Virus record (IMG/VR): IMGVR_UViG_3300045747_000505
Reading direction: 5' to 3' (one strand)
Source: a virus
Lineage: Duplodnaviria > Caudoviricetes
DNA: 64,000 bases
The translations under genes and the position numbers were made by a program. Below the pieces are notes generated by a model. That model ran no database searches and was not told the origin of the DNA. It saw only the letters and a program-made list of their open reading frames with translations. Positions 283 through 63,873 of the stretch are shown piece by piece (within the stretch, counting starts at the first letter, position 1; every line of letters starts with the position of its first letter).

Positions 283-1056
283 TCACATGAAGCCGAGGGC
301 TTCAGCGTTGAAGATGACTGCGCCGTGACTGGCAAGCGGATCGAGATACACGAACTGCTTGCCGCGCATGGCGAAGTTGTCCTCAGCGAAGTCAAGAGTG
401 CCGCCGTGCTTCTTTGCGATGATGGCTATCTCCTTGAGCAGCCAAGCCGCTTTACCGGTCTCCTCGCTGACCTGCGAGATGTAGCGCATGAAGTCGAACT
501 TGAGATTGCGCAGCTTCGAGTGCGCGTCAAGCACTACGGCAATGTTCTTGCTGTAGTTGTTGTCGAGCAAACCCTTCTCTGCGAGATCGCCAACGTATGA
601 GGCGTCGAGCGTGTTCGCCACGTGCAGCGGAACGTTCGCAGCCTTGGCGGCTTCGGTCAGCGCAGCGAGAGCTGGATTGTGATTGAAGATCGACCAGTAT
701 GGAATGGCGTTGGTCTGGCTCAGCTTCTCCATCTGAACGTACTTGAGACGATTGCCAACCTTCTCACGAGCCTTGTCGCTGACCTTGAAGAACAGCGGCA
801 TCGTCTTGATCTTCGTGTAGTACTTCGGCAGCTCTGGCACCTTGGGATTGGCACGGCAGTAGTCGACCCACGCGTCGAAGCATGGGTCGTAGAGCCAGAA
901 CTTGTAGACGATCGTGCCGTTCGTGACGGCAACGGCGTTCGCGCCCGCACCCAGATAGCGCAGCTTACCCTTGCCCTGCCCGTCGAAGAGCTCATCGACG
1001 ATGTCTGAGGCTGATTTGTCGGCGTACTTCTTGACGCCTAGAAGTTCTGTGAGCAT
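283..1056 (-). CDS. Protein kinase-like protein (T7 gp0.7-like Ser/Thr kinase fold)
   Basis: Gly loop LGAGANAVAV, VYK lysine, catalytic D-FAED-N, YLDP metal motif; late promoter TAAATA on minus strand at 1079-1084. Confidence 0.7.
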   Translation of the reverse strand: MLTELLGVKKYADKSASDIVDELFDGQGKGKLRYLGAGANAVAVTNGTIVYKFWLYDPCFDAWVDYCRANPKVPELPKYYTKIKTMPLFFKVSDKAREKVGNRLKYVQMEKLSQTNAIPYWSIFNHNPALAALTEAAKAANVPLHVANTLDASYVGDLAEKGLLDNNYSKNIAVVLDAHSKLRNLKFDFMRYISQVSEETGKAAWLLKEIAIIAKKHGGTLDFAEDNFAMRGKQFVYLDPLASHGAVIFNAEALGFM

Positions 1057-1090
1057 GCTGAACCTGAGTTGATTTTTCTATTTACAGACA

Positions 1091-1153
1091 AGCGTAACAG
1101 ACGAGGGACTGTTACGCTTTCGGGCAACCTGAAATCTAAAAGCGTGATAGAAT
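1091..1153 (+). promoter_or_regulatory. GTAAC/GTTAC inverted repeat plus -10 box
   Basis: AGCGTAACAG-8nt-CTGTTACGCT; TAGAAT at 1148-1153, 31 nt after GTTACG. Confidence 0.7.
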
Positions 1154-1182
1154 GGACACATCCAATCAAAAGGAACCCAATC

Positions 1183-1575
1183 ATGGCCCGCAAAACAGTC
1201 GCTCAACAACGTCAAGAAGAAGCCGCTCAACGCCTCGCCGAGTTTCAAGAGCTCGAGAAGACGCTGCCCAAGCAGCTCTTCGACCTTCAAGTGCGCGCCT
1301 CGAGGCTCAACTGGCTCACGATGCTGACGCTGTCCCCAGTTGGATACACCGTCGAGTTCCTCAATGGAACGCACGACTCGCTGCTCACCGTCGAGATGCC
1401 ACTGCGAATGGGAGACACCGAGCAGTGGCAGCTGGACGCCGTCGCCAACGTGCTGAAGACTCGCGAGGACGAGCTGGCTGAAGAAGCTGCCCGTCGCGAG
1501 CTGGCCAACACGGCTCTCGCCAAGCTGACCAAGGAAGAGCGCGCCGCACTGCGCCAACACTCCCACTTCCTCTGA
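1183..1575 (+). CDS. Hypothetical protein
   Basis: ORF MARKTVAQQRQEE..., AAGGA RBS, downstream of promoter. Confidence 0.75.
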   Translation: MARKTVAQQRQEEAAQRLAEFQELEKTLPKQLFDLQVRASRLNWLTMLTLSPVGYTVEFLNGTHDSLLTVEMPLRMGDTEQWQLDAVANVLKTREDELAEEAARRELANTALAKLTKEERAALRQHSHFL

Positions 1576-1656
1576 ACCGCACACAATTCCTTATTTGCCT
1601 ACTAATGCTATTAGAAGTGCGCTGAGTGGTGTTAGTACGGCATCTCCTTTCATAGG

Positions 1657-1971
1657 GTGAAAATGATCAATCTGAATCAGAAACCTGCCGAGGTCTTCAA
1701 CCTCAAAGAAGGCGATCATGTCCTGCTCAATGGGATAGAATGCGTCATGTACTGTCAAGAGCTGACCAACGAGATCTTCTTCTCGACTGCGGACTCGCGC
1801 TTGGCTGAGTATCAAGCGCTTTGGGCTCACGGCGAGGGCCACAGTACTCGCTACACCGACTACGTCCGCCACGCTCGCATCGGACGCCCTGCCGTCAATT
1901 CGCGCGCCGAGTTTCATCAAGCGCTGCTCAACGACCAAGTCGTCATCGACCCGCCGTTCATCGGCATCTAA
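1657..1971 (+). CDS. Hypothetical protein
   Basis: ORF with phage codon usage. Confidence 0.65.
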   Translation: MKMINLNQKPAEVFNLKEGDHVLLNGIECVMYCQELTNEIFFSTADSRLAEYQALWAHGEGHSTRYTDYVRHARIGRPAVNSRAEFHQALLNDQVVIDPPFIGI

Positions 1972-1980
1972 GGATTCCAC

Positions 1981-2427
1981 ATGTCTCTCCTCATTCGCAT
2001 CAAGGCTGACCAACTTCAGGCTCGCAAGGGCAAGATGACCATGGTTGCCGCTCTGCTCACGACCCTCATCGGCGAAGCCGAAGCCATCGGCAAGAACGCC
2101 GGCAACCGTGCCACGACCGATGACGAGGTCCTGGCCCTCATCGCCAAGTTCATCAAGAATCTCGACGAAACGATTCGTCTGCTTCCCGACACCGACGAGC
2201 GCAAGCTGTCGGCGATCTGTGAGCGCACCTGCCTCATGCAGTACCAGCCACGGCAGCTGACCGAGGCCGAGCTGAAGGACCACGTGCGCGCCATTCACGC
2301 CGGCCTGCTCGGCATGCAAGCCAAGGCTTCGATGGGCGACATCATAGGCGTGCTCAAGTCGCGCTTCGGCGGTCAGTACGACGGCAAGCTCGCTTCGGCC
2401 ATCGTCAAGGCGGAGCTGGCATCATGA
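1981..2427 (+). CDS. yqeY: GatB/YqeY domain protein
   Basis: IKADQLQARK...TDDEVLALIAKFIK...YQPRQLTEAEL...MGDIIG...DGKLASAIVKAEL matches the YqeY pattern. Confidence 0.85.
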   Translation: MSLLIRIKADQLQARKGKMTMVAALLTTLIGEAEAIGKNAGNRATTDDEVLALIAKFIKNLDETIRLLPDTDERKLSAICERTCLMQYQPRQLTEAELKDHVRAIHAGLLGMQAKASMGDIIGVLKSRFGGQYDGKLASAIVKAELAS

Positions 2428-2639
2428 GATTTCACGACATCACCGGTCAGGGCATGATCGACGTTGACGAGATCGCCTTCGTCGGCGTCGTGCTGACCGA
2501 CGAGCGGACCTACATCAACTGGCCGTACTCCATCGTGATTCGCCTGCGCGCCACCGACTCGATCATTCTGTCCTTCAAGGACAAGGGCGACGCAATCGAG
2601 GCCCGCCGAAGCCTTATCACAGCCTGGGGTGATGTATGA
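2424..2639 (+). CDS. Hypothetical protein
   Basis: ATGA overlaps with both neighbours. Confidence 0.65.
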   Translation: MRFHDITGQGMIDVDEIAFVGVVLTDERTYINWPYSIVIRLRATDSIILSFKDKGDAIEARRSLITAWGDV

Positions 2640-20020: not shown

Positions 20021-21721
20021 ATGGCCCTCATCTCCACACTTTCAGAAGCCTCAGGGCACGACATCGCAAGCCTGAAGAAGGTCATGCAGAAGGATCCCCG
20101 CGTCAAGCAGATCTTTCAGAAGGCGCTTGACGTTGACGACCTTGAGAACAAGGTTCAGTTCCTCGCGACGCTGAAGTTCTTTCTGCTGAACAATCGCAAC
20201 GTCATTGACTTCGTGGAGGGTCGCACCTACATCAAGGACATGAGCAAGACCTCGCTGAAGAAGTTCCGCGAGCTGAAGCCTGATGACTTGACGCAGGCGA
20301 AGCTCGACGAGCTGCGCGAGTTCGTTGCCGATCTGTTCCGTGAGCACGGCACCGTCGAGAAATCTGGCGTCTCAGCCACCGCTCGCAAGGCGCTGGTTGA
20401 CTGGGCGAACGGCAACGGGCGCTGGTTCAACCTGTCGAAGCCGATTCAGCAGGAGCTGCTCTCAGTGCCTGGCATTCGCCCAGACAAGAAGATCGTTCTC
20501 TATCGTGGTCTGCTCTTCGGCAATCACGATCTGAAGGAACGCAAGCGCTACGACGGACAGCTCGAGGTCGGGCACGGTCTGAAGTTTCTGCGCTCAGTTC
20601 GCAACGGCGGGCGCGTCGTTGACCTTGAGTGGGACCGTCCAAGCTCGTGGTCGACGAGCCGTGAGGTCGCCGAGAAGTTCGCTCGCTTCGCGCCAGCCGG
20701 CTCCAACTTCTCCGCCACGCTACAGTGGCTGTCTCGTGATGGCAAGATCGACGGCGACCTCGGCTTCATCGTCTCGATGCTCGTCGATCCAAAGGACATC
20801 CTCATCGACATGAATCGTCTTCAGACCGCTGCTCACCTACAGCACGGCAATGAGGGCGAGATCATCGTCGCGCCTGGCACCTACACCTGCCGCGTCAACA
20901 CGAAGTACACGAAGGCTGGTGAGGTTGATCCTACCGCCTCCGTCAAGGGCGACGAGAAGATGACTGAGCTCGCCTCAACCGTCAAGGACTTCGCAACGGG
21001 CTGGTCGCACAAGATTGATACGGATCTGCAGCATGGTAATTGGGGTCTTGCTGATGCCGATCGTGCGCTGAAGGACGGCAACATTGAGCACCTCAAGAAG
21101 CTCATCGCGCCTGGCTTCAAGGACAAGCTCATCGCTGACACAGACGATCTGCAAACGTTCTACCGCGACCACATCAAGGGTCTCACGGACGACGAGGTCG
21201 AGACCGCTGTCGCTCACGCCGACCACGGCAAGGTCGCTGCATGGATCAGTGAGCTGCGCAAGACGGCGAACACCTCGCTGCGCCACAAGGACTTTGTGAC
21301 GAAGGACAACTTTCGTGGCGATGCCAAGCATGGCGACGCCAAGGGTCATCACATTCGCGATTCGTACAATGGCTGGCTGTCGAAGGACATCAAGGGCATC
21401 AAGTACGGCGTGCGCTTCACCGACCGTGGCGAGGGTGCTGTCTTCGGCAATTTGATGAAGGCCTTCGTCAAAGACGAGAGTGGCGATTGGAATCGCCGAA
21501 GCAAGGTCGATCAGCAGAAGGCGCTCGACAAGCTCATCCCAGCATTCTTCAAGCAGATGGGTCTCTCTGAACCTGAGGACAAGGACGCCGCGATTCAGAA
21601 GATGGGGCTTGCACTTCTCACCGCTGAGCGCAATGCTCGCATGATTGACAATCTCGCACACGCTCGCACCGAGCTCGACAAAGCGCTGGGCACCATCCCA
21701 GACACCGACACCGACAACTGA
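20021..21721 (+). CDS. Late protein with ADP-ribosyltransferase-like domain (Alt-like)
   Basis: LYRG 20498-20509, SSWST..VAEKFA, NEGEII (R-S-E pattern); TAAATA 19990-19995; N-terminus MALISTLSEA. Confidence 0.6.
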   Translation: MALISTLSEASGHDIASLKKVMQKDPRVKQIFQKALDVDDLENKVQFLATLKFFLLNNRNVIDFVEGRTYIKDMSKTSLKKFRELKPDDLTQAKLDELREFVADLFREHGTVEKSGVSATARKALVDWANGNGRWFNLSKPIQQELLSVPGIRPDKKIVLYRGLLFGNHDLKERKRYDGQLEVGHGLKFLRSVRNGGRVVDLEWDRPSSWSTSREVAEKFARFAPAGSNFSATLQWLSRDGKIDGDLGFIVSMLVDPKDILIDMNRLQTAAHLQHGNEGEIIVAPGTYTCRVNTKYTKAGEVDPTASVKGDEKMTELASTVKDFATGWSHKIDTDLQHGNWGLADADRALKDGNIEHLKKLIAPGFKDKLIADTDDLQTFYRDHIKGLTDDEVETAVAHADHGKVAAWISELRKTANTSLRHKDFVTKDNFRGDAKHGDAKGHHIRDSYNGWLSKDIKGIKYGVRFTDRGEGAVFGNLMKAFVKDESGDWNRRSKVDQQKALDKLIPAFFKQMGLSEPEDKDAAIQKMGLALLTAERNARMIDNLAHARTELDKALGTIPDTDTDN

Positions 21722-25715: not shown

Positions 25716-28700
25716 GTGGCAAATTTCGACCTCGCATTTCAGCCAGAGAATGGCATCAACCTCGACGGGCTCGTCGGCATCTTCACCGGCATCATTGACC
25801 CGTCAATCGTTGGTGAGGCGGCGCCAATCGGCTCGCTCTACCTCAGCACCTCTGGTCGCCTCTATCAGAAGGTCACCGCGCTCGATACAGGGTGGATGGT
25901 CTTCTCACAAGGTCTTGGCGAAGCGCTGAAGATCTCAGCGACCGACACGACGGCTGGCTACCTCAACACGAAGCTGCTGACCTCAGCAGCGCTGACCAAG
26001 ACGGTCGGCAATGCTGGTGCTAACGAGACGCTCACGCTTGATCTAGCAAGCGTCGGCACCGCTGGCACGTATCGCTCGGTCACGACGAACTCCAAGGGTC
26101 AGGTCACCGCTGGTACCAATCCAACGACCCTTTCCGGCTACGGCATCACCGACGCGCAGCCACTGGCTACGAACCTTACGGCGCTCGCTGGCGTCGCAAC
26201 AACAGGACTCTATGTTCGTCAAACTGCTGGTGGCACAACTATCACTCGCACAATCGTCGGCACGACGAACCAGATCAACGTACTTGCTGGCGACGGCGTC
26301 AGCGGAAACCCGACGCTCTCATTCTCATCGACCGTTCTGTTTCCAGGCACGACTGGCATTCGACCGCCAAGCGGCACCACGGCTCAGCGCGTTGCCACCG
26401 CCTCGTACCTGCGCTTCAATACAACCACGGCAGCGCTCGAGTACTACAACGGCACCACGTGGGTCTCACTCGTCGCCTCCACTGGCGGCACAGTCACCTC
26501 CATCAGCACGGTAGCGCCAACTGAAGGTCTCACAATCACTGGCGGTCCAATCACCGCGGCTGGCACGCTGACCTTCACGCTTGCCAACGATCTCGCCGCT
26601 CTTGAGAGCATCGCAACCACTGGCTTCAGCGCTCGCATCGGCACGGACACTTGGGCGGCGCGCAACCTCACTGGCACGCTCGACCGTCTCGAAATCACAA
26701 ACGGTGCTGGCGTCGCTGGTGACCCAACCTTCGACATCGCCTCTACCTACGCGGGTCAATCGTCCATCATCACGCTCGGCAACATCACGACTGGCTCTTG
26801 GGCTGCGACGACGATTGACATTGGTCACGGTGGCACGGGTCGCACCAGCATCGGCGGCGCCAACACTGTCCTCGGCGTAAACACGACCGCCACAGCTCTT
26901 GAGTACAAGGTCATCGTTGGCGGTACTGGCATCAGCGTCTCACCAACTGCCAATCAACTACAGATCACCAACAGCGGCGTCACATCGGTGACTGGCACGA
27001 CCAATCAGGTCAACGTCTCTGGCAGCACCGGCTCCATCACGTTCTCGCTGCCACAGTCGATCGCTACGACGTCCACGCCAACGTTCGCGCAGGTTACCGT
27101 TGCAGCTGATCCAGCTGCACCGTTGCAGCTCGCTACCAAGCAGTACGTTGACAACGCTGTTCAAGGTCTCGATGCCAAGCAGTCGGTCGCCGCTGCGACC
27201 ACGACGAACATCACGCTGAGCGGTGAGCAGACGATCGACAACGTGGCGCTCGACACGGGTGATCGTGTCCTCGTCAAGAACCAGACGACCGCTTCACAGA
27301 ACGGTATCTACGTTGTTTCGTCCGGTGCGTGGACTCGCGCACTCGATCTCGACACCTGGGCTGAGGCTGTTGACGCCTTCACCTTCGTCGAGGGTGGCAT
27401 CGCTCTGGCTGGCACTGGGTGGATTGCCAACGGCTCCCGCACTGGCACCATCGACACCACCGCGATGCCGTGGGTTCAGTTCTCACAGGCAGGCGTCGTC
27501 AACGCCGGCGGTGGTCTCACGCAGTCGGGCACGACCATCAGTCTGTCACCAGTCGGCACCGCCGGCACGTACAACGACGTTACAACGAACGCCTACGGTC
27601 AGGTCATCAGTGGCACGAACCAACCATACCTCACCGCCAATCAGAACATCACGCTTCAGGGCGATGTCACCGGTGTTGGCAACACGCTCATCACCACCGC
27701 GCTCTCGGCAACCGGCGTGGCGCCTGGCACCTACAAGTCGGTGACCGTCGATGCCAAGGGTCGCATTGGCGCCGCCACGAATCCAACCACGCTCGCTGGC
27801 TACGGCATCACCGACGCGCAGCCAATCAACGCCTATCTGACGGCGCTGTCTGGTCTGGCGACCAACGGCATCGTCATTCGCTCTGGCAACACGACCACGA
27901 CTCGCACCATCGACGCTGGCTCCACGAAGGTCTCGGTCAACTTCGCCGATGGCGTCGCTGGCAATCCAACGATCGACGTCGTCGAAGCCAACCTTGCGCT
28001 GAACAACATCAGCGGCACGCTTGCGGTCAGCAAGGGCGGCACTGGTCTCAGCGCCGTCAATGGCGCCAACACGCTGCTTGGTGTCAACGCTTCATCGAAC
28101 GCGCTTGAGTACAAGGCGCTCACTGGCACCGGCATCACCATCACGCACTCACCGGCTGGCATCAACTTCACCACCATCAACAACGGCACCGTCACCTCTG
28201 TCGCAGCGACTGGAAGCACGGGTCTGACGGTTGGCGGCACGCCAATCACCAGCGCTGGCACGCTGACCTTCACGCTCAGCACGGAACTTCAGGCGCTCTC
28301 TGGTCTTGCCACGCTCGGCTTCGTGTCGCGCACCGCCGCCAACACCTACGTCACGCGCTCGGTGGTCAGCGGCAACGCTACCATCAGCATCTCGAACCCA
28401 GCCGGCTCAGCTGGCAACGTCAGTCTTGACCTCGCCACCGTCGGCACCGCTGGCACCTTCAAGTCAGTCACGACCGACATCTACGGTCGCGTCACCTCTG
28501 GCACGAATCCAACAACGCTCGCCGGCTATGGCATCACCGATGCCGCACCGAACACGCTCGCCTACCTCACGGTCGGTTCTGAGCCGACGCTGACCAATGA
28601 GCGCCGTCTTGCTGGCACGACCAGCCAGATCACGCTCGCCGACAATGGCGCCAACTCAACGCTTGTCATTGGACTCGCAGCCGACGCCGTGCTTCCAGGC

Positions 28701-31529
28701 ACTGGCTCAGTCACCGTTCCGGCTGGTACTACGGCTCAGCGAACTCCAGCGCCAGCCGTTGGCGCGTCTCGCTTCAACACCGACCTGCTCGCCATCGAGT
28801 ATTGGGACGGTTCGACGTGGCAACCAGTTGGTCGTCAGACGTTCGTTGATGCGAAGTTCCCAATGGGTTTCTACGACCGTCTTGGCGAATCAACGCTCGC
28901 CGTCGTCGCTGGCACTCGCACCTTCACCATCACGCCGATTGGCGCTCACTTCACGTACTACCACTCTGGTACGCGCATCGAGAAGACGACCGCCGAGAGC
29001 GTGGTCTGGCCAAACTCAAGCGGCATGTGGTACTTCTCGTACAGCGCCGCTGGCGTGCTCACCGCGTCTGGCTCGTTCTACGACCTCGCAACGCAGGTCC
29101 CAGCCGCCAATCTGTACTGGGACGCGACCAATCAGAAGATTCTGACCTTCGCCGACGAGCGCCACGGCGCTACGATGGACTGGGCAACGCACCAGTACCT
29201 GCACCTCACCGTCGGTCCGAAGTACTACAGCGGTCTTCAGCTCGGCAACTACACGACGGCCGGCACTGGCACGGCAGCGGCTGACGCTGAGCTCAGCCTC
29301 ACCAGCGGCGTGCTGTTCGACGAAGACCTGCGCATTGCCATCACGCACTCCGCGACGCCAACGAGCGCCAACGAGCAGAACCTGACGCCAATCGCTCAGA
29401 TCCCAGTCTTCTATCGCATCGGCGCTGGCGTTGCGAACTGGCAGGGCGACACGGCTAGCAACTTCCCAATCAAGTTCGGCACCGCCCGCGCTCGCTACAA
29501 TCTGAACACCGCTGGCACTTGGTCGCTGGCTGATGTGGGTGAGGGCGAGTACCTTGCAATGTGGGTCTTCGCCTCGAACGGCTACACGGACCCGGTCTTT
29601 GCGATGATGGGTCAGCGCACTGACACAACGCTGCAGAACGCCATCGACAACAACCTGTTCAGCACGATGGACTTCGGTGCGCACGTCTCTGCTGAGTCCA
29701 AGCTGCTGTACCGTCTCATCTACCAGACGAGCTCCGCCTACACGAACGCCGTCAAGGCTCGACTGGTCGATGTGCACGACATGCGCACCACGACCGAGCT
29801 GACAATTGCTGCGACCTCGCTCGTTGACCACAGCGACCTGGCTGGTCTCAACGGCGATGACCATATTCAGTATGTCCACCTTGCCAACGTTCGCACCATC
29901 TCGGCTCAGCACATCTATCAGCCGATTACTGCAGCTGCACCATTCGCTCTTGGCGCCAACGCTCAAGGTCAGCTCGTCACAGGCTTCAACGCTGACACCG
30001 TCGATGGCCTGCACGCAGCCTCGTTCCAAGCGGCCGATGCTGACCTCACCGCCATCGCTGCGCTGACTGGCACCGGCATCGCTGTTCGCACTGCCGCTGA
30101 CACGTGGACGACGCGCACTCTCGTAGCGCCTGCCGCTGGTCTGACCATCGCCAATCCAGCCGGCATTGCCGCTGGTCCGACCTTCGCGCTCGCTGATGAC
30201 CTGAACGCCCTTGAAGCGCTCGCCACCACTGGTCTCGCCGTTCGCACTGGCACCTCCGCCTGGACGACGCGCACGCTCGTCGCTGGCACTGGCATCACCA
30301 TCGCCAACACTGATGGTGTTGCTGGCAACATCACCATCTCTGCGCCTGGCGGCTCTGGAGTTACGTCGGTCGCTCTCGCCCTACCGTCCATCTTCACGGT
30401 GTCTGGTTCGCCGATCACCACGACTGGTACGCTGACTGGCACTCTCGCCACGCAGGCGCAGAAGACCGTCTTCGCTGGTCCTACGTCTGGCGTCAACGCC
30501 GCACCAACGTTCCGTACTCTGGCGCTCGCCAACGACCTCAGCGACGTCGTGGTCACCACGCCAACCGTCGGTCAGGTCCTCGCCTACGACAACACGACAT
30601 CCAAGTGGGTCAACGCTGGTGCCGTCGGCACGAGCGCTGCTGGTCTCATAGGCGCTGGTCAGGCTGGTGCCGCCGCTTGGACGCTGTCCTCTGGCACTCG
30701 CTACTTCGCCGACTTCACCCACGGGCTTGGCACGACCAACGTCGTCATCACCGTCTACGACACGGCGACGAACGCCGTCGTCATTCCAGACAGCATCATT
30801 CTGACGACCACGACCACGGTCCGTGTCACAGTCATCGGCAACACTCGCACGCTTCGAGTCGTCGTTGTTGCCAACGGCAACTCTGTCACCATCGGTGGTG
30901 GAGGTGGAGGTGGCAACGTCGCCATCGCCAAGGATGGCGCGACGGTCGTCGCAACGGCATCGACCATCAACTTCCGTGGTGCGCCAATCACGGTGGCTGA
31001 CGCTGGTGCTGGCACTGCAAACGTAACGATTGGCGCTCGCTACTCGTTCATGGCGCACTCGCTTGACACACCGAACACCGCTGACTACGCCGTCAACGCA
31101 ATCGCCGCAGCCACAACCGACCCGACCTCCACCTCACTGAGCGTTCGCTCGTTCAGCAACACGGTCGAGCAGGGCGTCGCGTTTCAGGTCTCCATTCCGG
31201 CGAACGCAACGACGATGACGCTCAAGATTCGTGGTCGCGCTGCGACAGCCCCTGGTGCTGTCAACGTCGTTCAACCTCGCCTCTACTCGCGCGTCATTCC
31301 AAACAACGCCGCGATGGGCGCCTGGTCTGCAGCGTTCGAGCTGAACAACATCTCCATTCCAACGAACGCGTTCTTTCAGTATTCGACGCAGACCATTCCG
31401 CTGACGACACTTGGCATCACCGCTGACAGTCTCTATCAGTTCGAGCTGACACGGCGCATCACTGGCGTGACTGGCACTAACCTCGCCTCAGCCTTCTATA
31501 TGGTTGAGCTAATCTGTGAGTTCAGCTAA
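25716..31529 (+). CDS. Long tail fibre protein (1937 aa)
   Basis: T/G/A-rich; repeats VGTAGTY.SVT.D.KGRVT.GTNPTTLAGYGITDA; GTTAQR..RFNT..EY.G..W; ATKQYVD; TAAATA 25682-25687. Confidence 0.9.
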   Translation: MANFDLAFQPENGINLDGLVGIFTGIIDPSIVGEAAPIGSLYLSTSGRLYQKVTALDTGWMVFSQGLGEALKISATDTTAGYLNTKLLTSAALTKTVGNAGANETLTLDLASVGTAGTYRSVTTNSKGQVTAGTNPTTLSGYGITDAQPLATNLTALAGVATTGLYVRQTAGGTTITRTIVGTTNQINVLAGDGVSGNPTLSFSSTVLFPGTTGIRPPSGTTAQRVATASYLRFNTTTAALEYYNGTTWVSLVASTGGTVTSISTVAPTEGLTITGGPITAAGTLTFTLANDLAALESIATTGFSARIGTDTWAARNLTGTLDRLEITNGAGVAGDPTFDIASTYAGQSSIITLGNITTGSWAATTIDIGHGGTGRTSIGGANTVLGVNTTATALEYKVIVGGTGISVSPTANQLQITNSGVTSVTGTTNQVNVSGSTGSITFSLPQSIATTSTPTFAQVTVAADPAAPLQLATKQYVDNAVQGLDAKQSVAAATTTNITLSGEQTIDNVALDTGDRVLVKNQTTASQNGIYVVSSGAWTRALDLDTWAEAVDAFTFVEGGIALAGTGWIANGSRTGTIDTTAMPWVQFSQAGVVNAGGGLTQSGTTISLSPVGTAGTYNDVTTNAYGQVISGTNQPYLTANQNITLQGDVTGVGNTLITTALSATGVAPGTYKSVTVDAKGRIGAATNPTTLAGYGITDAQPINAYLTALSGLATNGIVIRSGNTTTTRTIDAGSTKVSVNFADGVAGNPTIDVVEANLALNNISGTLAVSKGGTGLSAVNGANTLLGVNASSNALEYKALTGTGITITHSPAGINFTTINNGTVTSVAATGSTGLTVGGTPITSAGTLTFTLSTELQALSGLATLGFVSRTAANTYVTRSVVSGNATISISNPAGSAGNVSLDLATVGTAGTFKSVTTDIYGRVTSGTNPTTLAGYGITDAAPNTLAYLTVGSEPTLTNERRLAGTTSQITLADNGANSTLVIGLAADAVLPGTGSVTVPAGTTAQRTPAPAVGASRFNTDLLAIEYWDGSTWQPVGRQTFVDAKFPMGFYDRLGESTLAVVAGTRTFTITPIGAHFTYYHSGTRIEKTTAESVVWPNSSGMWYFSYSAAGVLTASGSFYDLATQVPAANLYWDATNQKILTFADERHGATMDWATHQYLHLTVGPKYYSGLQLGNYTTAGTGTAAADAELSLTSGVLFDEDLRIAITHSATPTSANEQNLTPIAQIPVFYRIGAGVANWQGDTASNFPIKFGTARARYNLNTAGTWSLADVGEGEYLAMWVFASNGYTDPVFAMMGQRTDTTLQNAIDNNLFSTMDFGAHVSAESKLLYRLIYQTSSAYTNAVKARLVDVHDMRTTTELTIAATSLVDHSDLAGLNGDDHIQYVHLANVRTISAQHIYQPITAAAPFALGANAQGQLVTGFNADTVDGLHAASFQAADADLTAIAALTGTGIAVRTAADTWTTRTLVAPAAGLTIANPAGIAAGPTFALADDLNALEALATTGLAVRTGTSAWTTRTLVAGTGITIANTDGVAGNITISAPGGSGVTSVALALPSIFTVSGSPITTTGTLTGTLATQAQKTVFAGPTSGVNAAPTFRTLALANDLSDVVVTTPTVGQVLAYDNTTSKWVNAGAVGTSAAGLIGAGQAGAAAWTLSSGTRYFADFTHGLGTTNVVITVYDTATNAVVIPDSIILTTTTTVRVTVIGNTRTLRVVVVANGNSVTIGGGGGGGNVAIAKDGATVVATASTINFRGAPITVADAGAGTANVTIGARYSFMAHSLDTPNTADYAVNAIAAATTDPTSTSLSVRSFSNTVEQGVAFQVSIPANATTMTLKIRGRAATAPGAVNVVQPRLYSRVIPNNAAMGAWSAAFELNNISIPTNAFFQYSTQTIPLTTLGITADSLYQFELTRRITGVTGTNLASAFYMVELICEFS

Positions 31530-44700: not shown

Positions 44701-47700
44701 TTAGGTGCGCTGGTAGTACAGCGTGACCTTGAGACCCTTGGCACCAGCGCCAGCCGCTGCGATGTCAAGGGTAAACTCTGCATCGTCGGCGATCGTCGTA
44801 GTGATAAGCGTCGTTGCTGCAGCAGCGGTGGTGCTTGTCTTCTCAGCTGCATCAATGGTCAGCTTGGCAACTCCAAGAATTGAAGTGCCATTGACCTTGA
44901 CGTCCACCGAGGTCGTGCCCGTGCCAGCGCTCGAAAGACCTGCACGCGGAATCTGATAGAGCGTCATCGCGTACGGCGCACGGAAGGTAACCTTCGCGGT
45001 GCCCGTGCTCAATGCCGTCGTCTCATCGCTGAGCGCAATGACCATGAACTCGCCGCTGTCCTTCCAGACCGGTGATGCTGCACCGGCAGAGGTAAGCACT
45101 TGACCCGTGGTACCAGTTGCCGTGCCAGTTGCGCCGAAGCTGACGCCGCCAGTTGATGTGACGCGCATCTTTTCGGTGCTACCAGCAACGAACGAAACGT
45201 AGCCAGCTTGACCAAGAATGGCGTTGCCTGAGGTGTCAAGCGAAAGCGTTGGCGCTGTAGTACCCGCCGAGCTATAACCAAGACGAACAGCTGCCGTTGA
45301 GCTGCGCAGCACGAGGTCACCAGCAAGCGTGCCAGTGAAGTGTTGAGCAGCAACGCCGGTCACACCAATGACCGCTTCAGCCGCAGCGCGACCAAGGTCA
45401 AGCCAAGATGCCACCGCTGTGGTAGAGCGAATCGCGACGGCAGCACCAGCGGCTGTGCCCGTGAAGGTGGTGGTCGGTGCTGTGTAGACACCGTTGCCAG
45501 CAGCAAGAACGCCACCAGCACCAACAATCTGAATTGTTCCAGTTGAGCCAGCGGTTGAAAGACCACCAGGCATTGACGTCCACGCCGGTGCCGTGGTTGC
45601 GCCAGTTGACATCAGCACTTGACCCGACGTGCCAGTGGCGGTGCCGCCTGTGCCAACAGACCATGCGCCATTTGCAAGAACGCGTAGGCGTTCGGTGGTG
45701 CCAGTCTTGACCATCAACGCAGACGAGTTGAGCGTCAGCGTGTCAGCGACGTTGGTAGTGATGGTCGTGTTGCTCGCGGTGCCGCCAAGCAGCAGCGTCG
45801 AGGTGCTGGTCACCCAAGCCAGATTGGCAGAGAATGCCGTCGCGCTGCCTGCTGATTGGAATGGGATTTGGCTGGCTGCACCGCCGAGAAGGTTGGTTGC
45901 CGTTGAAGCGCTGACAGTACCCCATGATGAGTTGATGCCGTCAGTGGTCAGCACCTTGCCAGAGTTGCCCGACTGTGCCGGTAGCACTGAGTCAGGCGTG
46001 ATGGTTGACCACACCGCTGCCGTACCGTTCGTGATGAGCGCTTTGCCGGCGTTGCCGACTTGCGACGGTAGCAGCGTTGAAGCTGAGATGGCAGCCCAAG
46101 AGCTGTTGGTGCCATCTGACGTCAGGAACTGCGTAGCGTGTCCGGCTTGTGCCGGCAGAATCGCGTTGGCTGAGAATGCAGTCCAAGAGATTGTCGTGCC
46201 GTCTGTGCCAAGATACTTGCCGCTGTTGCCAGTGATTGCTGGCAACACGTTGGACGCTGAAACAGTGGACCAAGATGAGTTCGTACCGTCGGTGGTCAAA
46301 ACCTTGTTGGCATTGCCAGCTTGAGACGGCAGCAAACCAGTCAACGCAGCCGAAGCGGTTGTAGCGCCGGTACCACCAGATGCGATGTTGAGCGTGCCAC
46401 CGAGCGTCAGCGTGCCAGTCGTGGTAATTGGACCACCAGCGAGCGTGAGACCTGTCGTGCCACCAGCGCCAGACACCGATGAGACGGTACCAAGACCAGC
46501 TGCGCTGATGATGCCAGTGGTTGAGTCATAGCTGATTGGTGCGGTTGCACTGATGGCCGTGCGGGCACGACTCGTGGTGAAGTACTGATTGGTGCCCTCG
46601 GTGATGTTCGTCGAGGACAGCACGACAGCGCCAGTGAAGCCGTTGACGCTTGACACGGCGCTTGCTGGAGTGCGGGGCTTCCACAGCGATGAGGCGGCAA
46701 CCCACGTCAGCACCTGACCATCAGTCGGTGCTGGAGCAACGGTGTCAACGTCGGCAAGAGCGTTGATGGATGAACCAGCAATGCCAGCTGCGACACGAAG
46801 GTCCGCTTGAGCGTCGGTGTAGGTCGTGCTGCCAAGGTCGGCAAGCGACGTGATGAACTTGTGAAAGATGAGACCGTCATTGGTGAACTCCCACTGGTCA
46901 AGCGCCTCGTTCCAGCGCATTGACACCTCTGGCGACGTGCCGCGATTGACGGCGAACGAAGCGTTCTGCGTCGGGACGCCAGTGACGAGGTTGAGCAGCG
47001 AGATAGAGGCGTTGCCAACGTCAAGCGAGGCTGAAGCAATGGTAGTTGTAGTGCCAGTGACCGTCAGATTGCCTTGAATGACCACGCTGCCGGAAGCGTT
47101 GATGTTGTTGAAGACTGGATTGCTGGTTGTTGCGACTGGTTGCCCAATGGCGACGACGCCGCTAGTGATGGTGATGCCCGTGCCAGCGGTGAGCGATGAA
47201 GCGGACATTGCAGAGTCAACGTACTGCTTCGTGGCTGCGTGCAACGGAACAACCGGCGCACCACTCAGCGTGATAGGACCAGACATCGTGCCGCCAGTGA
47301 GGCTCAACTTGCCGTCAAGCAGCGTCCCGACGCCGGCGGTGATGGTCGCCGTTGTTGTATCAACGTAGCTCTTGGAGGCGGCATCAAGCGCATTGACTGG
47401 GGCGCCAGAGAGCGACAGCGGACCCGTCATCGAACCGCCGGTGATGTTCAGCTTGCCGTCGAGCTGAGATTGAAAGCTGGTGTTGGCGGAGGCGATTGAT
47501 GAGATTGCCGTGTCAACATAGCCCTTTGTCACAGCGTGCAGGCTTGCTGTTGGCGCTGCGTTCAGCGTAATGAAGCCTGTCATAGTGCCGCCGGCGAGCG
47601 GCAGCTTATTGGACAGCTCGGTTGTCAGACCAGTCACGTCGGTAATGAGGTGCGAGTGGTTGGCGTTCGCCTTGGTGCTCTGCAACGTCGTGATGTTGCC

Positions 47701-48861
47701 AGCGTTCGTCGTGATGCGAGCATCGAGACCGTTCAACTGAACGACCTGTGATGGCGTCATCACACCAGCCGCTGTCGTCGAGGCTTGGTCCACGGTGAGT
47801 GTGACCGTTGTCAGATCACCAGAGGTCTGAGCGTGCAGTGGAGCGACAGCATTGATCGTGGTCAGCGTACCGTTGCCGGTGCCACCACCGCCACCCGCTG
47901 CTTCACAGACGATGTTGAGCAGAATGGTGCGATCGTTCTTGATCGTGCCGACGCGATAGACGATGTCCGCAATTGGGCGAGTCGTTGTGAGCTGTCCAAG
48001 AGCGTCTGACCACAGCGCTTCGCCAGCATGCCCAGCCCAGTCCCACTGGTCGTAGGTGATTTCGCCAGACTGCGTGAGCGTGCCAACCTCAGTCTCGTTC
48101 AGACCGTATTCGACGAGACCAACTGGTGCCTTGCGAGCTGCAACGGCGTCAACTGAGCTGGACAGCGAGACTGTGTCGACGTCGCTGAAGTAGACCAAGC
48201 TCATCGGCGGGAGATTCTCGCCGGCACGAACTGGAACGAAGTTGTTGATGGCGTTGCTGAGAACGCCAGACGTGCCGACGGTGATGGCGGCACGAACTGG
48301 TGTGTCAGTCGTCAGCAGCGTGCCAGCTGCCGTGCGGACTGGGCGAAGACCTGCGTCGTAGAGGACGAAGCCTGGCTGGCATGGGACGTTGAGACCGACG
48401 CCTGAGCCGGCAATGTAGCCAACAAGCTGCGACGTGCTGCCACCAACTGCCTTGCCGATGAACACGCGTGGCGCCGGAAGCCACTTGGTGTTGGCTGAAT
48501 TGCGCACCTTCATTACCTGGTCGTTGAGGTCAAACCAGTGCTGACCAGCTACCAGCGACGGCTCAACAAGGCTTGTGACTGGCTCGAGCTGCGTCGTGCC
48601 AGTTTGAACCTCGCCAGACAGCAGGTCGATGCCGACGTAGAAGTAGTTGGTTGGACCCAGCACGACCGGACCGAAGGCAGCCGCCTTCTGAACGTCAAAC
48701 TTGAGTAGATAGTCGGTCGGACCGTGCGCGATGGTCGCGAAGAACGGGGTCGGGGCTACCTTCAGGTCGACGTAATCTGGAATGGCAGCCTGAACGAGGA
48801 AGTCTGGCGCCGGTCCGTTTAGTTGGAATGAGATAAGACCTTGGCGGAAAATTAGCTTCAT
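44701..48861 (-). CDS. Large fibre/adhesin-like virion protein (about 1386 aa)
   Basis: Start MKLIFRQG after minus-strand TAAATA 48887-48892; three GG.M.G...L..AP....HA.TK.YVD repeats; five LP.Q.GN.GK.L.TDGT..SW repeats. Confidence 0.8.
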   Translation of the reverse strand: MKLIFRQGLISFQLNGPAPDFLVQAAIPDYVDLKVAPTPFFATIAHGPTDYLLKFDVQKAAAFGPVVLGPTNYFYVGIDLLSGEVQTGTTQLEPVTSLVEPSLVAGQHWFDLNDQVMKVRNSANTKWLPAPRVFIGKAVGGSTSQLVGYIAGSGVGLNVPCQPGFVLYDAGLRPVRTAAGTLLTTDTPVRAAITVGTSGVLSNAINNFVPVRAGENLPPMSLVYFSDVDTVSLSSSVDAVAARKAPVGLVEYGLNETEVGTLTQSGEITYDQWDWAGHAGEALWSDALGQLTTTRPIADIVYRVGTIKNDRTILLNIVCEAAGGGGGTGNGTLTTINAVAPLHAQTSGDLTTVTLTVDQASTTAAGVMTPSQVVQLNGLDARITTNAGNITTLQSTKANANHSHLITDVTGLTTELSNKLPLAGGTMTGFITLNAAPTASLHAVTKGYVDTAISSIASANTSFQSQLDGKLNITGGSMTGPLSLSGAPVNALDAASKSYVDTTTATITAGVGTLLDGKLSLTGGTMSGPITLSGAPVVPLHAATKQYVDSAMSASSLTAGTGITITSGVVAIGQPVATTSNPVFNNINASGSVVIQGNLTVTGTTTTIASASLDVGNASISLLNLVTGVPTQNASFAVNRGTSPEVSMRWNEALDQWEFTNDGLIFHKFITSLADLGSTTYTDAQADLRVAAGIAGSSINALADVDTVAPAPTDGQVLTWVAASSLWKPRTPASAVSSVNGFTGAVVLSSTNITEGTNQYFTTSRARTAISATAPISYDSTTGIISAAGLGTVSSVSGAGGTTGLTLAGGPITTTGTLTLGGTLNIASGGTGATTASAALTGLLPSQAGNANKVLTTDGTNSSWSTVSASNVLPAITGNSGKYLGTDGTTISWTAFSANAILPAQAGHATQFLTSDGTNSSWAAISASTLLPSQVGNAGKALITNGTAAVWSTITPDSVLPAQSGNSGKVLTTDGINSSWGTVSASTATNLLGGAASQIPFQSAGSATAFSANLAWVTSTSTLLLGGTASNTTITTNVADTLTLNSSALMVKTGTTERLRVLANGAWSVGTGGTATGTSGQVLMSTGATTAPAWTSMPGGLSTAGSTGTIQIVGAGGVLAAGNGVYTAPTTTFTGTAAGAAVAIRSTTAVASWLDLGRAAAEAVIGVTGVAAQHFTGTLAGDLVLRSSTAAVRLGYSSAGTTAPTLSLDTSGNAILGQAGYVSFVAGSTEKMRVTSTGGVSFGATGTATGTTGQVLTSAGAASPVWKDSGEFMVIALSDETTALSTGTAKVTFRAPYAMTLYQIPRAGLSSAGTGTTSVDVKVNGTSILGVAKLTIDAAEKTSTTAAAATTLITTTIADDAEFTLDIAAAGAGAKGLKVTLYYQRT

Positions 48862-48922
48862 TGAGAGCTCCACGAATTGGTTTGAGTATTTATCACGTTG
48901 GCAGCTTCTGGTTGATGCCCCG

Positions 48923-48930
48923 TATAAATA
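48923..48930 (+). promoter_or_regulatory. T4-type late promoter TATAAATA (divergent from minus-strand TAAATA 48887-48892)
   Basis: Exact T4 late consensus. TAAATA also precedes late genes at 1079(-), 13343, 19990, 22073, 24158, 25682, 32199, 39565(-), 39592, 41013, 56791, 62120, 63900(-). Confidence 0.8.
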
Positions 48931-48954: not shown

Positions 48955-50436
48955 ATGCAACTCACAGAACTATTCGAAGCCAAGTACAGCGGTGCAAACG
49001 TTGGCTCGGCTATGTCAAAGATCGTCTCGTACCTTGAGCGAGCAATGAGCTTCAAGCTGCTCAAGCTCGGAGTCGAAACCTTTCACAACAGCGCAGAGAA
49101 CGCTCGTGGCATTCGCTACGTCGAGCTCGGCACGCTCAACTGCATTCGCTTCAACTGGGTTGGTTCGAAGTCATCAGAGATCGTCTCGATCGACCTGTGG
49201 AATGGTTCATCGCGCGACCCGAACTTTCACATCAAGCTGAACGGTACCTCGCTCGTCAAGGCGCTGCCCGCTCTCGTTCAAGTGCTGAAGTCGCCGAAGA
49301 TCGGCAAGGTCTCCGTGACCGAAGCGCTCGTGCTTGAGGTCAAGAAGGGTGAGTTCAGCGAGACGTCTGCCGTCAACGACATGATTCAGAAGCTTGAAGC
49401 TGGTCGCAGCTTCAACCGCTCAGAGTTCATCAACGCCTATCACGTGGACAATGCTCACGCATTCGACGAGTTCGTTGAGGCGAACAAGGATGATCTCGTC
49501 TTCACTGGCAAGCGCATCAGCATTCCAAAGGGCACCAAGCTCGGCGCCAAGTCTGATGGTGGTGGCGGCGGACTGACGGTCACGAAGGGTGGCAGCGGTG
49601 AAGAGTACGAGGTCGAGGTTCCAGAGTCTGAGGACCGTGTCACCTTCAGCGACAGCATCAAGGATCTGGAAGGTCTGACGACCGCAGTCATTCGTGGCAA
49701 CGCCAACGCGCTGTTCGTCGCTGGCCGTGGTGGTACCGGCAAGACGCAGACGGTTGAGGACGTGCTCGCTGCCGCTGGTCTTGAGGATGGCAAGGGCTAC
49801 GAGAAGATCACTGGCTCGGCCTCGCCAATCGGCATCTACTACGCGCTCTACAAGAATCGCACCGGCATCATTCTGTTCGACGACTGCGACGGCGCGCTCG
49901 ATCAGCAAGACGGCCGCAACGTCATCAAGGCGGCGACCGACACGAAGAAGATTCGCAAGATCGCTTGGGGCAAGAAGAATCCAGGCATGTACGACCCAGA
50001 CTCACGCGCGCCACCGCCGTCTGATCCAGATGAGGACGAGGGTGTTGACGATGAAGAGGGTGGCGATGATGACGGTGGTTCTTCTGGCAAGCAAGACGAC
50101 AAGATTCCAAACCGCTTCAACTTCGAAGGTCGCGTCATCTTCATCTCGAACATGCCGCTGAACAAGCTCGACCCAGACGGCGCCCTTCGCACTCGCGCCT
50201 TCGTCATCAGCGTTGACCCAACGCCAGAGGAAATGTTCGAGCGCATGGGTGAGATTCTGCACAGCATTCGCCTTGAGTCTGGCTCGCTGTCGCCTAAGGA
50301 GCGTCAAGAGGTTCTGACGGTTGTTCGTGGCTCCAAGCGCGCCAAGGACGCCTCACTGCGTACGCTCGTTCGCGCCCTCAACCTCGCAAGCAGCGGAGCT
50401 CCAAACTGGAAGCTTCTGGTTCAGCGCTACGCGTAA
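48955..50436 (+). CDS. Late AAA+ ATPase with N-terminal extension
   Basis: GRGGTGKT, IILFDDCD, RVIFISN, ALRTR; N-terminus MQLTELFEAK; acidic insert. Confidence 0.85.
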   Translation: MQLTELFEAKYSGANVGSAMSKIVSYLERAMSFKLLKLGVETFHNSAENARGIRYVELGTLNCIRFNWVGSKSSEIVSIDLWNGSSRDPNFHIKLNGTSLVKALPALVQVLKSPKIGKVSVTEALVLEVKKGEFSETSAVNDMIQKLEAGRSFNRSEFINAYHVDNAHAFDEFVEANKDDLVFTGKRISIPKGTKLGAKSDGGGGGLTVTKGGSGEEYEVEVPESEDRVTFSDSIKDLEGLTTAVIRGNANALFVAGRGGTGKTQTVEDVLAAAGLEDGKGYEKITGSASPIGIYYALYKNRTGIILFDDCDGALDQQDGRNVIKAATDTKKIRKIAWGKKNPGMYDPDSRAPPPSDPDEDEGVDDEEGGDDDGGSSGKQDDKIPNRFNFEGRVIFISNMPLNKLDPDGALRTRAFVISVDPTPEEMFERMGEILHSIRLESGSLSPKERQEVLTVVRGSKRAKDASLRTLVRALNLASSGAPNWKLLVQRYA

Positions 50437-57923: not shown

Positions 57924-57957
57924 CGATAAGTATAGGTGTTAGACCGACGCCTATGCT

Positions 57958-61145: not shown

Positions 61146-61162
61146 GTCACCGCTGAACCTAG

Positions 61163-62082: not shown

Positions 62083-62156
62083 TAGGCACTGTCAGGCAAG
62101 GAGGGACGTTCCCTGCGCGTAAATAGAACGTTCCTCAATCGTAACGAAAGCCAACA

Positions 62157-62279
62157 ATGCCAGGTCTCAGCTCAATCCTCTTCGAGCTCGCTCCCAAAAT
62201 GATAATGAGCCTGATGTTCTGGTGGCTCCCAGTCCAGCCGAAGGCAAAGCCGTTACAAGTGTCAAGAAGTTACAGGTGA
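62157..62279 (+). CDS. Small late peptide
   Basis: TAAATA 62120-62125; MPGLSSILFELAPKMIMSLMFWWLP... Confidence 0.4.
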   Translation: MPGLSSILFELAPKMIMSLMFWWLPVQPKAKPLQVSRSYR

Positions 62280-62312
62280 TTCGAACCTAACCGAGAGTTC
62301 ATGTGGTATAAT
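62269..62312 (+). promoter_or_regulatory. GTTACA box plus -10
   Basis: TATAAT 62307-62312, 32-nt spacer; second GTTACA at 62252. Confidence 0.65.
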
Positions 62313-62338
62313 CGCTGCATGAACTTTCGGAGCTTCAG

Positions 62339-62656
62339 ATGACCCTCGAACTTGAGGTTGGTCGCGTCTTCATGTACGCGGAGATCACGAACATCGTCTG
62401 GGATGATGGCGTCGACGGCGAAGGATCGCTGCCCGACCCCGTCTATGGACGCACCAAGATGGAGCCGTACTACTCGACCCCTACCGACGACGCTCTGCGC
62501 ATCGCTCGTGTCGAGGACGTCGGGACCGAGGAGTTCGAAAACTGGCGCGCTTACGTCACGGACTACCTGATGGACAAGGCGCAGAACCTCGAACAGCGCG
62601 GCATCATTCAGTGCTCACCAGCTCGCATGCGTCTAGAAGACGGCACGTGGCTCTAA
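62339..62656 (+). CDS. Hypothetical protein
   Basis: GGAG RBS. Confidence 0.65.
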   Translation: MTLELEVGRVFMYAEITNIVWDDGVDGEGSLPDPVYGRTKMEPYYSTPTDDALRIARVEDVGTEEFENWRAYVTDYLMDKAQNLEQRGIIQCSPARMRLEDGTWL

Positions 62657-62666
62657 CGGAACAACC

Positions 62667-62876
62667 ATGAACTTCTTCTCCAAGCCGGTTTTCGCGATCG
62701 GCTACCTACCGCTCGCCTACCTCGTGGCGATCGCCATCGCCGCCTACTCAACCTTCGGACACTTCGTCGAGGTCTTCATGTACACCGTGAAGCACGCACA
62801 TCGCGTCTACGGGCGAATGATGCGCAAGCCGATTCCGAAGACGGATGAGCAAGACGACTTCTGGAACTTCAGCTGA
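62667..62876 (+). CDS. Small membrane protein
   Basis: N-terminal hydrophobic helix. Confidence 0.6.
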   Translation: MNFFSKPVFAIGYLPLAYLVAIAIAAYSTFGHFVEVFMYTVKHAHRVYGRMMRKPIPKTDEQDDFWNFS

Positions 62877-62931
62877 TCAGCTCAGCGCACTTTCAATAGC
62901 ATTAGTTGGCAAATAAGGAATTGCGTGCGGT

Positions 62932-63111
62932 TCAAGCGCCGCTGAGTTCGCGATCTGGGAAGATCGGTTTGCCCGCCTTGTCCTGCTCGATGATCTCACG
63001 CAGAATGTCGTTGCACAGCTCGTTGAAGGTGATGTCGCGCTCGTGCGCGAGCTTCAACAGCGCGAAGAACTCCGCTTCGGTGAGTCCAAGCTCGATGAAT
63101 TCGTCGTCCAT
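62932..63111 (-). CDS. Small protein, possibly ribbon-helix-helix-like
   Basis: MDDEFIELGLTEAEFFALLKLAHERDITFNELCNDILRE (59 aa, not in the ORF track). Confidence 0.5.
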   Translation of the reverse strand: MDDEFIELGLTEAEFFALLKLAHERDITFNELCNDILREIIEQDKAGKPIFPDRELSGA

Positions 63112-63114
63112 AGC

Positions 63115-63873
63115 TTAGGCTCGCACGACCTCGACGGTGTGTGGATCCTCGTCGTTCGCCTTGCCCATGCCGCCGTTCGGATAGACGTTGAAGTCCTCGG
63201 CGCGAATTCGCTTCGCCAGTCGATCGGCTTCAGCCTTTGAGAGGCGCTTGGCGCTCGTTGGCCCAGACGTCCAGTTGTACTCACCACCGGCGTAGTACGA
63301 CTCACGTGGCTTGGCAAGCGCTTCCTTCTTGCCAGCGCGTGGATAGTTGTGCGACTTCGTCATCTTGATGATGAACTCACTCGCTTCTGTTTCCTCGCGA
63401 ATGCGCTTTCGCGGCATCGGCGCGATGGTCAGCAGCTTCATCCCGTGAAAGTTCTTCGAGAACTTCTCGCGAACGTCACGGGCATCACGACCCTTGAGGG
63501 TCGTCTTCTTCTCGACATCGCTGTTGCGAGCGCAGAAGGTGATCTTGAACTCGAGCGCTTCAGCGAGCGCGCCCGCAACGGCATCAGCTGGGTCGACGCC
63601 TTGACGTGAGCCTGGCTTCAGCTTGCGCATCGCCATGTCGGCTTCACGCTTCTCCTGCGGCGTGAGCTGCACCTTCGGTCCCGGCTGCTTCGGCAGGTTC
63701 GGTTGACCAGGCTTCTTTGTCTTCAGCCCGCCCTTCTTGTCGACGATGCTCTTCAACTTGTCAGCGCCCTGCTGGCCGAGCTTGGTCTTGATGGCGTCCC
63801 ACACCTTGCCATCGTCAGCCTCGGCTTCTTCGAGCTGCTTGGCGATGAGTACGTAGTCCTTGAATCCTAGCAT
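63115..63873 (-). CDS. Late protein, possible internal head protein
   Basis: MLGFKDYVLIAKQLEEAE; minus-strand TAAATA 63900-63905. Confidence 0.7.
   Translation of the reverse strand: MLGFKDYVLIAKQLEEAEADDGKVWDAIKTKLGQQGADKLKSIVDKKGGLKTKKPGQPNLPKQPGPKVQLTPQEKREADMAMRKLKPGSRQGVDPADAVAGALAEALEFKITFCARNSDVEKKTTLKGRDARDVREKFSKNFHGMKLLTIAPMPRKRIREETEASEFIIKMTKSHNYPRAGKKEALAKPRESYYAGGEYNWTSGPTSAKRLSKAEADRLAKRIRAEDFNVYPNGGMGKANDEDPHTVEVVRA

Follow-up and report, generated by a model that had tools for sequence, protein, structure and literature searches.

T4-like capsid-targeting leaders predicted on late enzymes of an uncultured jumbo phage

The 64-kb stretch of DNA analysed here (the window) belongs to an uncultured virus, IMG/VR record IMGVR_UViG_3300045747_000505 (Duplodnaviria; Caudoviricetes), and our results suggest that several of its late enzymes begin with a head-loading tag of the type known from phage T4. 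We consider it probable that the N-terminal 4-10 residues of the proteins starting at 57958, 48955 and 20021, and probably also those of the protein encoded by 283-1056, are T4-type capsid-targeting propeptides. A previous, sequence-only reading had listed seven unrelated late proteins with a similar leader, and proposed that a kinase, ADP-ribosyltransferase (ART)-like enzymes and an ATPase among them are packaged together and ejected into the host. All seven N-termini are encoded where that reading placed them, and the enzyme labels also stood, as a protein-kinase-like fold, two ART-fold proteins with R-S-ExE motifs and a P-loop ATPase. The idea of capsid targeting itself fitted four of the seven, supported by a conserved glutamate, by N-terminal specificity on unrelated proteins, and by S77 proteases and tagged virion proteins in relatives.

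The window has 58% GC, is 90% coding and contains 87 called genes, nearly all on the + strand. Its topoisomerase II is of T4 type and shares 49% identity with that of Xanthomonas phage X1 and 44-46% with those of XacN1 and RsoM2USA. A megablast search with 12 kb of the window gave no match among cultured phages, and an exact 41-mer of the window had no match in IMG/VR.

Leader types and their carriers in the window

Two leader types can be distinguished, an internal protein (IP) type, M-[IKL]-T-F-K-x-[FY]-L-(x)-E, and an Alt/gp24 type, M-x-L-x-[ED]-L-[FL]-E. Both have counterparts among T4 N-termini (taken from NC_000866). The IP type is seen in IPII and IPIII (MKTYQEFIAE, then A) and in IPI (MKTFKEF...ITE, then A), and other T4 leaders are those of Alt (MELITELFDE), gp24 (MAKINELLRE, then S), gp22 (MLKEQLIAE, then A) and gp68 (MLLIPETHE). 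In T4, an Asp at position 10 prevents processing of the tag and leaves its targeting intact. In the tag of T4 IPIII, residues 4 and 7 (Tyr4, Phe7) serve targeting and residues 8 and 10 serve processing (PMC9026906). The leader of 57958 has F4, F7, L8 and E9, its family holds F4 and F/Y7, and its orthologues start MITFKEFLFE followed by S. The protein at 63873 has F4 and Y7, and the position-4/7 determinants do not apply to Alt-type leaders. The four better supported leaders (Table 1) end in FLE/S (57958), LFE/A (48955), LSE/AS (20021) and LTE/L (283-1056), and occur on three different folds. In the alignments of their families (A1, 57958; A2, 48955; A3, 20021; A4, 283-1056) the leader glutamate is invariant or at least 90% conserved, with S or A next in A1, A2 and A3; leader conservation holds over 30-60 homologues, and the glutamate is invariant over 53 and 61 homologues.

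Table 1. Coordinates of the leader-bearing genes and weak candidates, the short ATPase paralogue and the late-promoter-like motifs in the window. A slash marks the predicted end of the leader, and (M) a methionine from GTG initiation.
Feature	Position	Strand	Description
Protein-kinase-like phosphotransferase, 257 aa	283..1056	-	Short leader MLTE/LLGVKKY
TAAATA motif	1079..1084	-	28 nt before start at 1056
TAAATA motif	19990..19995	+	31 nt before ATG at 20021
Second ART-like protein, 566 aa	20021..21721	+	Leader MALISTLSE/AS, 20021-20047
TAAATA motif	48925..48930	+	30 nt before 48955 start
493-aa protein	48955..50436	+	Alt-type leader MQLTELFE/AKY (leader 48955-48978), conserved 230-aa N-terminal domain, P-loop ATPase
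Short ATPase paralogue, 313 aa	54554..55495	+	Internal contrast, lacks leader, late motif and N-terminal domain
TAAGTA late-promoter-like motif	57927..57932	+	31 nt before 57958 start
ART-fold protein, 386 aa	57958..59118	+	IP-type leader (M)ITFKLFLE/S, codons 57958-57984, GTG start
Operon member, 150 aa	59618..60070	+	Weak candidate (M)KLFEVAE/Y, GTG start, AGGAAGG ribosome-binding site
Operon member, 128 aa	60057..60443	+	Weak candidate MLLIEIVE/T
252-aa protein of unknown fold	63115..63873	-	Weak IP-type candidate MLGFKDYVLIAKQLEEAE/A
TAAATA motif	63900-63905		Upstream of 63873 start

N-termini were scored with position matrices trained on other phages only, against a background of ~16,000 internal windows. 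Both 57958 (p<6e-5) and 48955 outscored every one of these internal windows, 20021 reached p 0.0025, and 283-1056 had p=0.0034 under an earlier Alt-type matrix. The remaining three, 59618 (p 0.010, Alt-type), 63873 (p 0.011, second best for the IP type) and 60057 (p 0.029), are marginal matches, about one hit of such p per matrix being expected among 87 genes. The proposed family of shared leaders is narrowed to four members plus three marginal candidates, and a search of the window in all frames found no further leaders beyond those claimed. The sequence-only reading had also proposed a check for cleavage after L/F/I-x-E, which as a generic criterion proved uninformative, since hydrophobic-x-Glu occurs in the first dozen residues of 101 proteins of a complete relative vs 87 expected from internal positions.

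Within the 57958 family (35 sequences), MITFKQFL(x)ES persists to ~30% identity, with E9 in at least 90% of members and a leader conservation of 0.63 vs 0.39 for the following 40 residues. In the AlphaFold2 model of 57958 (pLDDT 87), residues 1-9 are disordered. The body contains YRG (Y287 R288 G289), ATS.S (T315 S316) and ESE (E368-S-E370), and residues 254-386 give a moderate structural match in VIA-align to Tpt1/KptA (Z 7.9) and to the Rhs ART toxins (TreX, Z 7.0), with weak Foldseek E-values (0.08-1). A profile search of the PDB with this family returned helical noise only, and tblastn against phages found a single weak C-terminal match, in Tenacibaculum phages. The 20021 family (53 sequences) has E9 in 53/53, A10 in 51/53 and S11 in 50/53 under the consensus M[QK]L[IL]xxL[QN]E/AS, and the homologue in RsoM2USA starts MNFKSFLNINKLFEA. 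No related loci were found for 20021 in IMG/VR. Its body motifs are YRG (Y161 R162 G163), SWSTS (S208-W-S-T-S) and EGE (E278-G-E280), so that Arg, Ser-x-Ser and Glu-x-Glu appear in the order of R-S-E ADP-ribosyltransferases in both families. The two families are homologous to each other (hhalign 96%, E 5e-9), and therefore the description of the leader bearers as unrelated fails for this pair, which shares a distantly homologous ART domain.

The protein at 48955 belongs to a family of 31 sequences in which MxLxELFEAK is conserved and E8 is invariant. The C-terminal half of this protein forms a P-loop ATPase resembling T4 NrdC.10 and phrog_1250 (phrog_1250, E 3e-33), which was the only hit when the seven proteins were searched against Pfam and PHROGs, and GRGGTGKT and LFDDCD (Walker A and Walker B) are conserved in the family. 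By tblastn, T4-like phages align over residues 227-490, and besides a gene of Acj9 that bears the nrdC.10 annotation the matches comprise more than 1,200 further phage records; T4-like phages encode this kind of ATPase near nrdC. The shorter paralogue at 54554 serves as a contrast within the window (Table 1), and RsoM2USA has a counterpart of the short form only (302776-304161).

The protein encoded by 283-1056 has 186 homologues, with the consensus MxLxELxGVKKF, in which E4 and G7 are invariant, and the leader ranks 8th of 247 windows in conservation. LGxGxxG, VYK, DLHxxN and IxDP correspond to the Gly-rich loop, the lysine and the catalytic and metal-binding Asp. Aminoglycoside phosphotransferases have a protein-kinase-like fold, and the AlphaFold2 model (pLDDT 92) matches APH(2'') in Foldseek with E 1.5e-4 and probability 1.0 at a low TM-score. 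Pfam and PHROG hits were none for this protein, and no related loci were found in IMG/VR. Two homologues (P0157 and P0179) carry MTTFKEYL ahead of the conserved LDEL.GVKK start, giving MTTFKEYLRLDE/L. This grafting of MTTFKEYL before the same Glu suggests that leader length varies and that the invariant Glu marks where the leader ends. Leader types are therefore exchangeable or stackable on one protein family.

The leaders of 59618, 60057 and 63873 are marginal candidates as judged from their sequences. The first shows no homology to the gene at the equal operon position in relatives; homologues of 63873 were found neither in phages (tblastn) nor in IMG/VR, and a protein atlas was uninformative for it.

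TAAATA forms the central part of TATAAATA, the late promoter of T4. The window has 18 copies, 15 of them intergenic and 7-72 nt ahead of a start codon. The earlier statement that most of the seven genes follow TAAATA or TAAGTA, or lie in an operon that does, is confirmed: the motif stands 28-32 nt upstream of five starts, as TAAGTA at 57958 and as TAAATA at 1056, 20021, 48955 and 63873, and the other two genes (59618 and 60057) are downstream members of the 57958 operon. With these promoter-like motifs as the basis, the leader-bearing genes would be transcribed late. The TAAATA ahead of 48955 is accompanied by another on the opposite strand (48887-48892), the two standing back-to-back and 33 nt apart within 48887-48930; they form what appears to be a divergent late promoter pair for a 1390-aa minus-strand gene (44701-48873) and the ATPase gene.

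Other genes of the window include thymidylate synthase, DnaJ-like proteins and very large fibre-like proteins. Two DnaJ-like J-domain proteins are encoded near each other, at 11910-12770 and 13370-14257, with TAAATA directly before the second. A late protein of 1937 aa (25716-31529) has internal repeats, each of which matches the fibre-like proteins of RsoM2USA (283386-293966); it probably represents a giant fibre of the tail or a protein of the baseplate.

Leaders, proteases and virion proteins in related phages

The ATPase family led to G001, a complete IMG/VR genome of 343 kb with terminal repeats and 433 proteins, whose capsid protein shares 64% identity with its counterpart in the cultured Ralstonia phage RsoM2USA. 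The Alt-type core [ED]L[FL]E occurs at residues 2-7 in 10/433 proteins of G001 vs 0.42 expected (p 3e-11). These ten proteins are mutually non-homologous and their leader codons vary synonymously. Half of their genes stand behind TAAATA vs 13% of all genes (Fisher p 0.004). In RsoM2USA, a [TS][FY][KQ]x[FY][ILT] leader is present on 9/393 proteins vs 0.06 expected (p 1e-17), on at least six unrelated families, and synonymous codons vary freely inside the leaders. Overall, tight motifs are 20- to 150-fold enriched at N-termini in these two complete relatives. The synonymous variation argues against a signal at the RNA level.

RsoM2USA also links the leader to virions. Ten abundant virion bands of this phage were identified with LC-MS/MS (tandem mass spectrometry coupled to liquid chromatography), namely ORFs 38, 86, 89, 132, 257, 356, 359, 361, 383 and 438 (PMC8504454). 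ORF89 starts MKTFKQFLSE/SK, ORF132 starts MKTFKQFLNTLME, and an internal Met of ORF438 gives MLTFKQYAQPILTE/G. The tag is therefore carried by 3/6 virion proteins of unknown role, whereas 11 of the 486 ORFs as a whole bear it (Fisher p 1e-3 when all ten bands are counted, 1.7e-4 when only the six are), and the authors of that study made no remark on a shared leader (PMC8504454). The annotated start of RsoM2USA_438 (MG752970.1 309479-311161), MLHRETLMLTFKQY..., probably lies seven codons upstream of the true one.

Prohead protease genes of the Peptidase_S77 family, to which T4 gp21 belongs, were detected above the Pfam cut-off in G001, RsoM2USA and G002, a third relative (148 kb). The long ATPase orthologue of G002 comes immediately after the genes for scaffold and capsid, with the S77 protease gene ~2.4 kb upstream of it, and the next gene encodes a protein starting MKSFKSYLTE. 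In closer relatives, the ART operon is found between tail sheath and terL, amid other leader-bearing genes, for example those of an amidoligase (MITFKEYLTE) and of small proteins (MRVQELFED and MKVADLFEG). The amidoligase gene of locus L043 (1584-3131) codes for a 515-aa Amidoligase_2 protein between gp15-like and tail sheath genes and adds a further class of tagged enzyme, and in L044 (13313-13606) the MKVADLFEG start is hidden by the called start. The genes at 20021 and 59618 were also considered as orthologues of the leader-bearing genes of L043 and L044 and were rejected (no tblastn match, pairwise E 0.06).

A scan of IMG/VR for DNA encoding MKTFKQF[LF], a pattern that leaves the glutamate outside the search, returned at least 120 stretches vs about one expected by a rough estimate. 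Among the matches listed, Glu is at residue 10 in 60/82 and within residues 9-11 in 77/82, residue 11 is Ser or Ala in 34/82, and the protein bodies beyond are unrelated.

The T4 major capsid protein gp23 has a propeptide of 65 residues. The major capsid proteins of G001 (220823-222040) and RsoM2USA (261286-262521) start MELFENW... and MNLFENW..., followed by ...LLEG/L, and since they have just ~405-411 aa, the capsid propeptide of this clade may be much shorter than that of gp23.

Alternative explanations and a proposed route

Several observations weigh against a role of the leaders in head loading. No head-module genes are present in the 64-kb window, and the protease of this phage and its cleavage specificity are thus not visible. 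The leader of the ATPase family is not conserved above the rest of the N-terminal domain (0.67 vs 0.72), and that of 283-1056 is short, lacks a second Glu and forms a helix of moderate confidence in the model, so that it could belong to the fold. Finally, the RsoM2USA virion ORFs 38 and 86 have no leader, nor do the virion chitinase and lipase of XacN1; the latter pair indicates that the tag is not the sole route into virions.

Among the alternatives, the one that survives best is a role in the prohead core or scaffold, in which the tagged proteins would be processed and would act in head assembly or be degraded, like T4 gp22, gp67 and gp68, instead of being ejected. The similar leaders of gp22 and gp68 speak for it, as does the position of the long ATPase orthologue of G002 inside the head gene cluster, adjoining the scaffold and capsid genes. 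T4 core proteins are moreover cleaved into fragments (PMC9026906) and degraded rather than injected, which is a further point against delivery. However, no part in assembly is obvious for the ART-fold and kinase-like enzymes, which find their parallel in the ejected T4 Alt, and the RsoM2USA proteins with leaders are roughly full-size among the abundant virion bands (PMC8504454). We regard a scaffold role as unlikely.

It is somewhat less likely still that the leader is another kind of tag, read by a modifying enzyme, a chaperone or a membrane, or serving translation initiation or protein stability. The N-terminus of the kinase-like protein, which may be a structural helix, would fit such an explanation. 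Against it, the leaders nearly match the experimentally defined T4 tag, including its targeting and cleavage positions, three bearers are in RsoM2USA virions, and relatives encode S77 proteases. Chance, or a generic bias by which Met-Lys/Leu-rich, Glu-containing amphipathic N-termini are simply common, is just as improbable: it agrees with the lack of enrichment of generic hydrophobic-x-Glu and with the three weak candidates, which stand at p 0.01-0.03 among 87 genes and have no homologues found, and it is contradicted by the N-terminal enrichment of the tight motifs in two complete relatives, by the invariant Glu of the homologues and by the coupling of Glu to the TFKQF part in IMG/VR matches.

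Capsid targeting by the leaders thus remains the reading that we favour, and it can be laid out by analogy with T4. The genes would be transcribed late, from TAAATA-type promoters, and the amphipathic leader would bind the scaffolding core while the prohead is being assembled; in leaders of the IP type, the aromatics at positions 4 and 7 would make this contact. A prohead protease of the gp21 family (Peptidase_S77) would then cleave after the conserved hydrophobic-x-Glu and free the mature enzyme inside the head, where it would stay with the DNA. At least the ART-like and kinase-like enzymes would enter the next host with the DNA, as T4 Alt and the internal proteins do. The leaders are very like the T4 head-loading tag, and therefore the enzymes are probably carried in the virion; we take packaging in the head of this phage to be likely and, with Alt and the internal proteins as models, ejection to be plausible. 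Core binding and cleavage, together with roles in host takeover or anti-defence, are what we infer from the same analogy.

More tentatively, and with slightly more doubt than belief on our part, the T4 tag could be an address label readable from sequence throughout the T4 superfamily, including jumbo phages of the XacN1/RsoM2USA type, and a kinase-like enzyme, an AAA-type ATPase and no fewer than two ADP-ribosyltransferases could enter the cell along with the DNA of this phage, ahead of all phage gene expression. If this were true, the injected proteome of uncultured phages would be predictable from N-termini alone.

Significance and comparison with known systems

If the tag works as in T4, sequence data suffice to list the proteins that uncultured large phages package and probably inject, which would open a direct route to the enzymes of host takeover and counter-defence that act in the first minute. 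Our analysis names concrete candidates (two ART-fold proteins, a kinase-like protein and an ATPase), and RsoM2USA ORF89, ORF132 and ORF438, virion proteins of previously unexplained function, now appear as tag bearers. It also shows that the targeting and cleavage residues of the T4 tag stayed coupled across a very large evolutionary distance, and it is relevant to delivering proteins with such tags in phages besides T4. The T4 capsid targeting sequence (CTS) and its spread among T-even phages were already known (PMC3012670, PMC9026906). We found no publication reporting leaders of this kind from XacN1, RsoM2USA or Rak2-related jumbo phages, within an incomplete coverage of the literature. The mechanism is hence a known one, and the sequences suggest that it is now seen in a phage lineage distant from T4.

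T4 Alt is an ART-type enzyme that is carried in the head and ejected, and that undergoes C-terminal processing. About 7 residues are removed from it as a propeptide (PMC9026906). The window likewise encodes two leader-bearing R-S-ExE ART-fold proteins, and the leader MQLTELFE of 48955 resembles MELITELFDE of Alt. In contrast, the ART proteins of the window have no detectable sequence relationship to Alt (hhalign probability <1% for both families), and their nearest solved folds are Tpt1/KptA and the Rhs ART toxins, at a Z of only about 7-8. The T4 proteins gp24, gp22 and gp68 and the head proteins of phiKZ and SPN3US are prohead proteins whose leaders are cut after Glu by a gp21-related protease (PMC5694885, PMC10052503). 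However, (S/A/G)-x-Glu is the site used in phiKZ-like phages and their propeptides mostly exceed 100 residues, whereas the leaders of the window are short and T4-like.

The closest comparison is with the CTS found on T4's internal proteins. The window phage is a jumbo phage with 58% GC from the XacN1/RsoM2USA-related group, far from Tevenvirinae; its cargo consists of large enzymes (250-570 aa), whereas that of T4 consists of small basic proteins; and the predicted leader of 57958 is one residue shorter. In spite of these differences, both are N-terminal stretches of 10-19 residues with aromatics at 4 and 7 and a hydrophobic-x-Glu end followed by Ala or Ser, and both are found on otherwise unrelated proteins, behind late-type promoter motifs, in phage lineages with a gp21-family protease. 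The likeness extends to the residues themselves, with MITFKLFLE/S in the window and MKTFKQFLSE/S in its relatives set against MKTYQEFIAE/A and MKTFKEF in T4.

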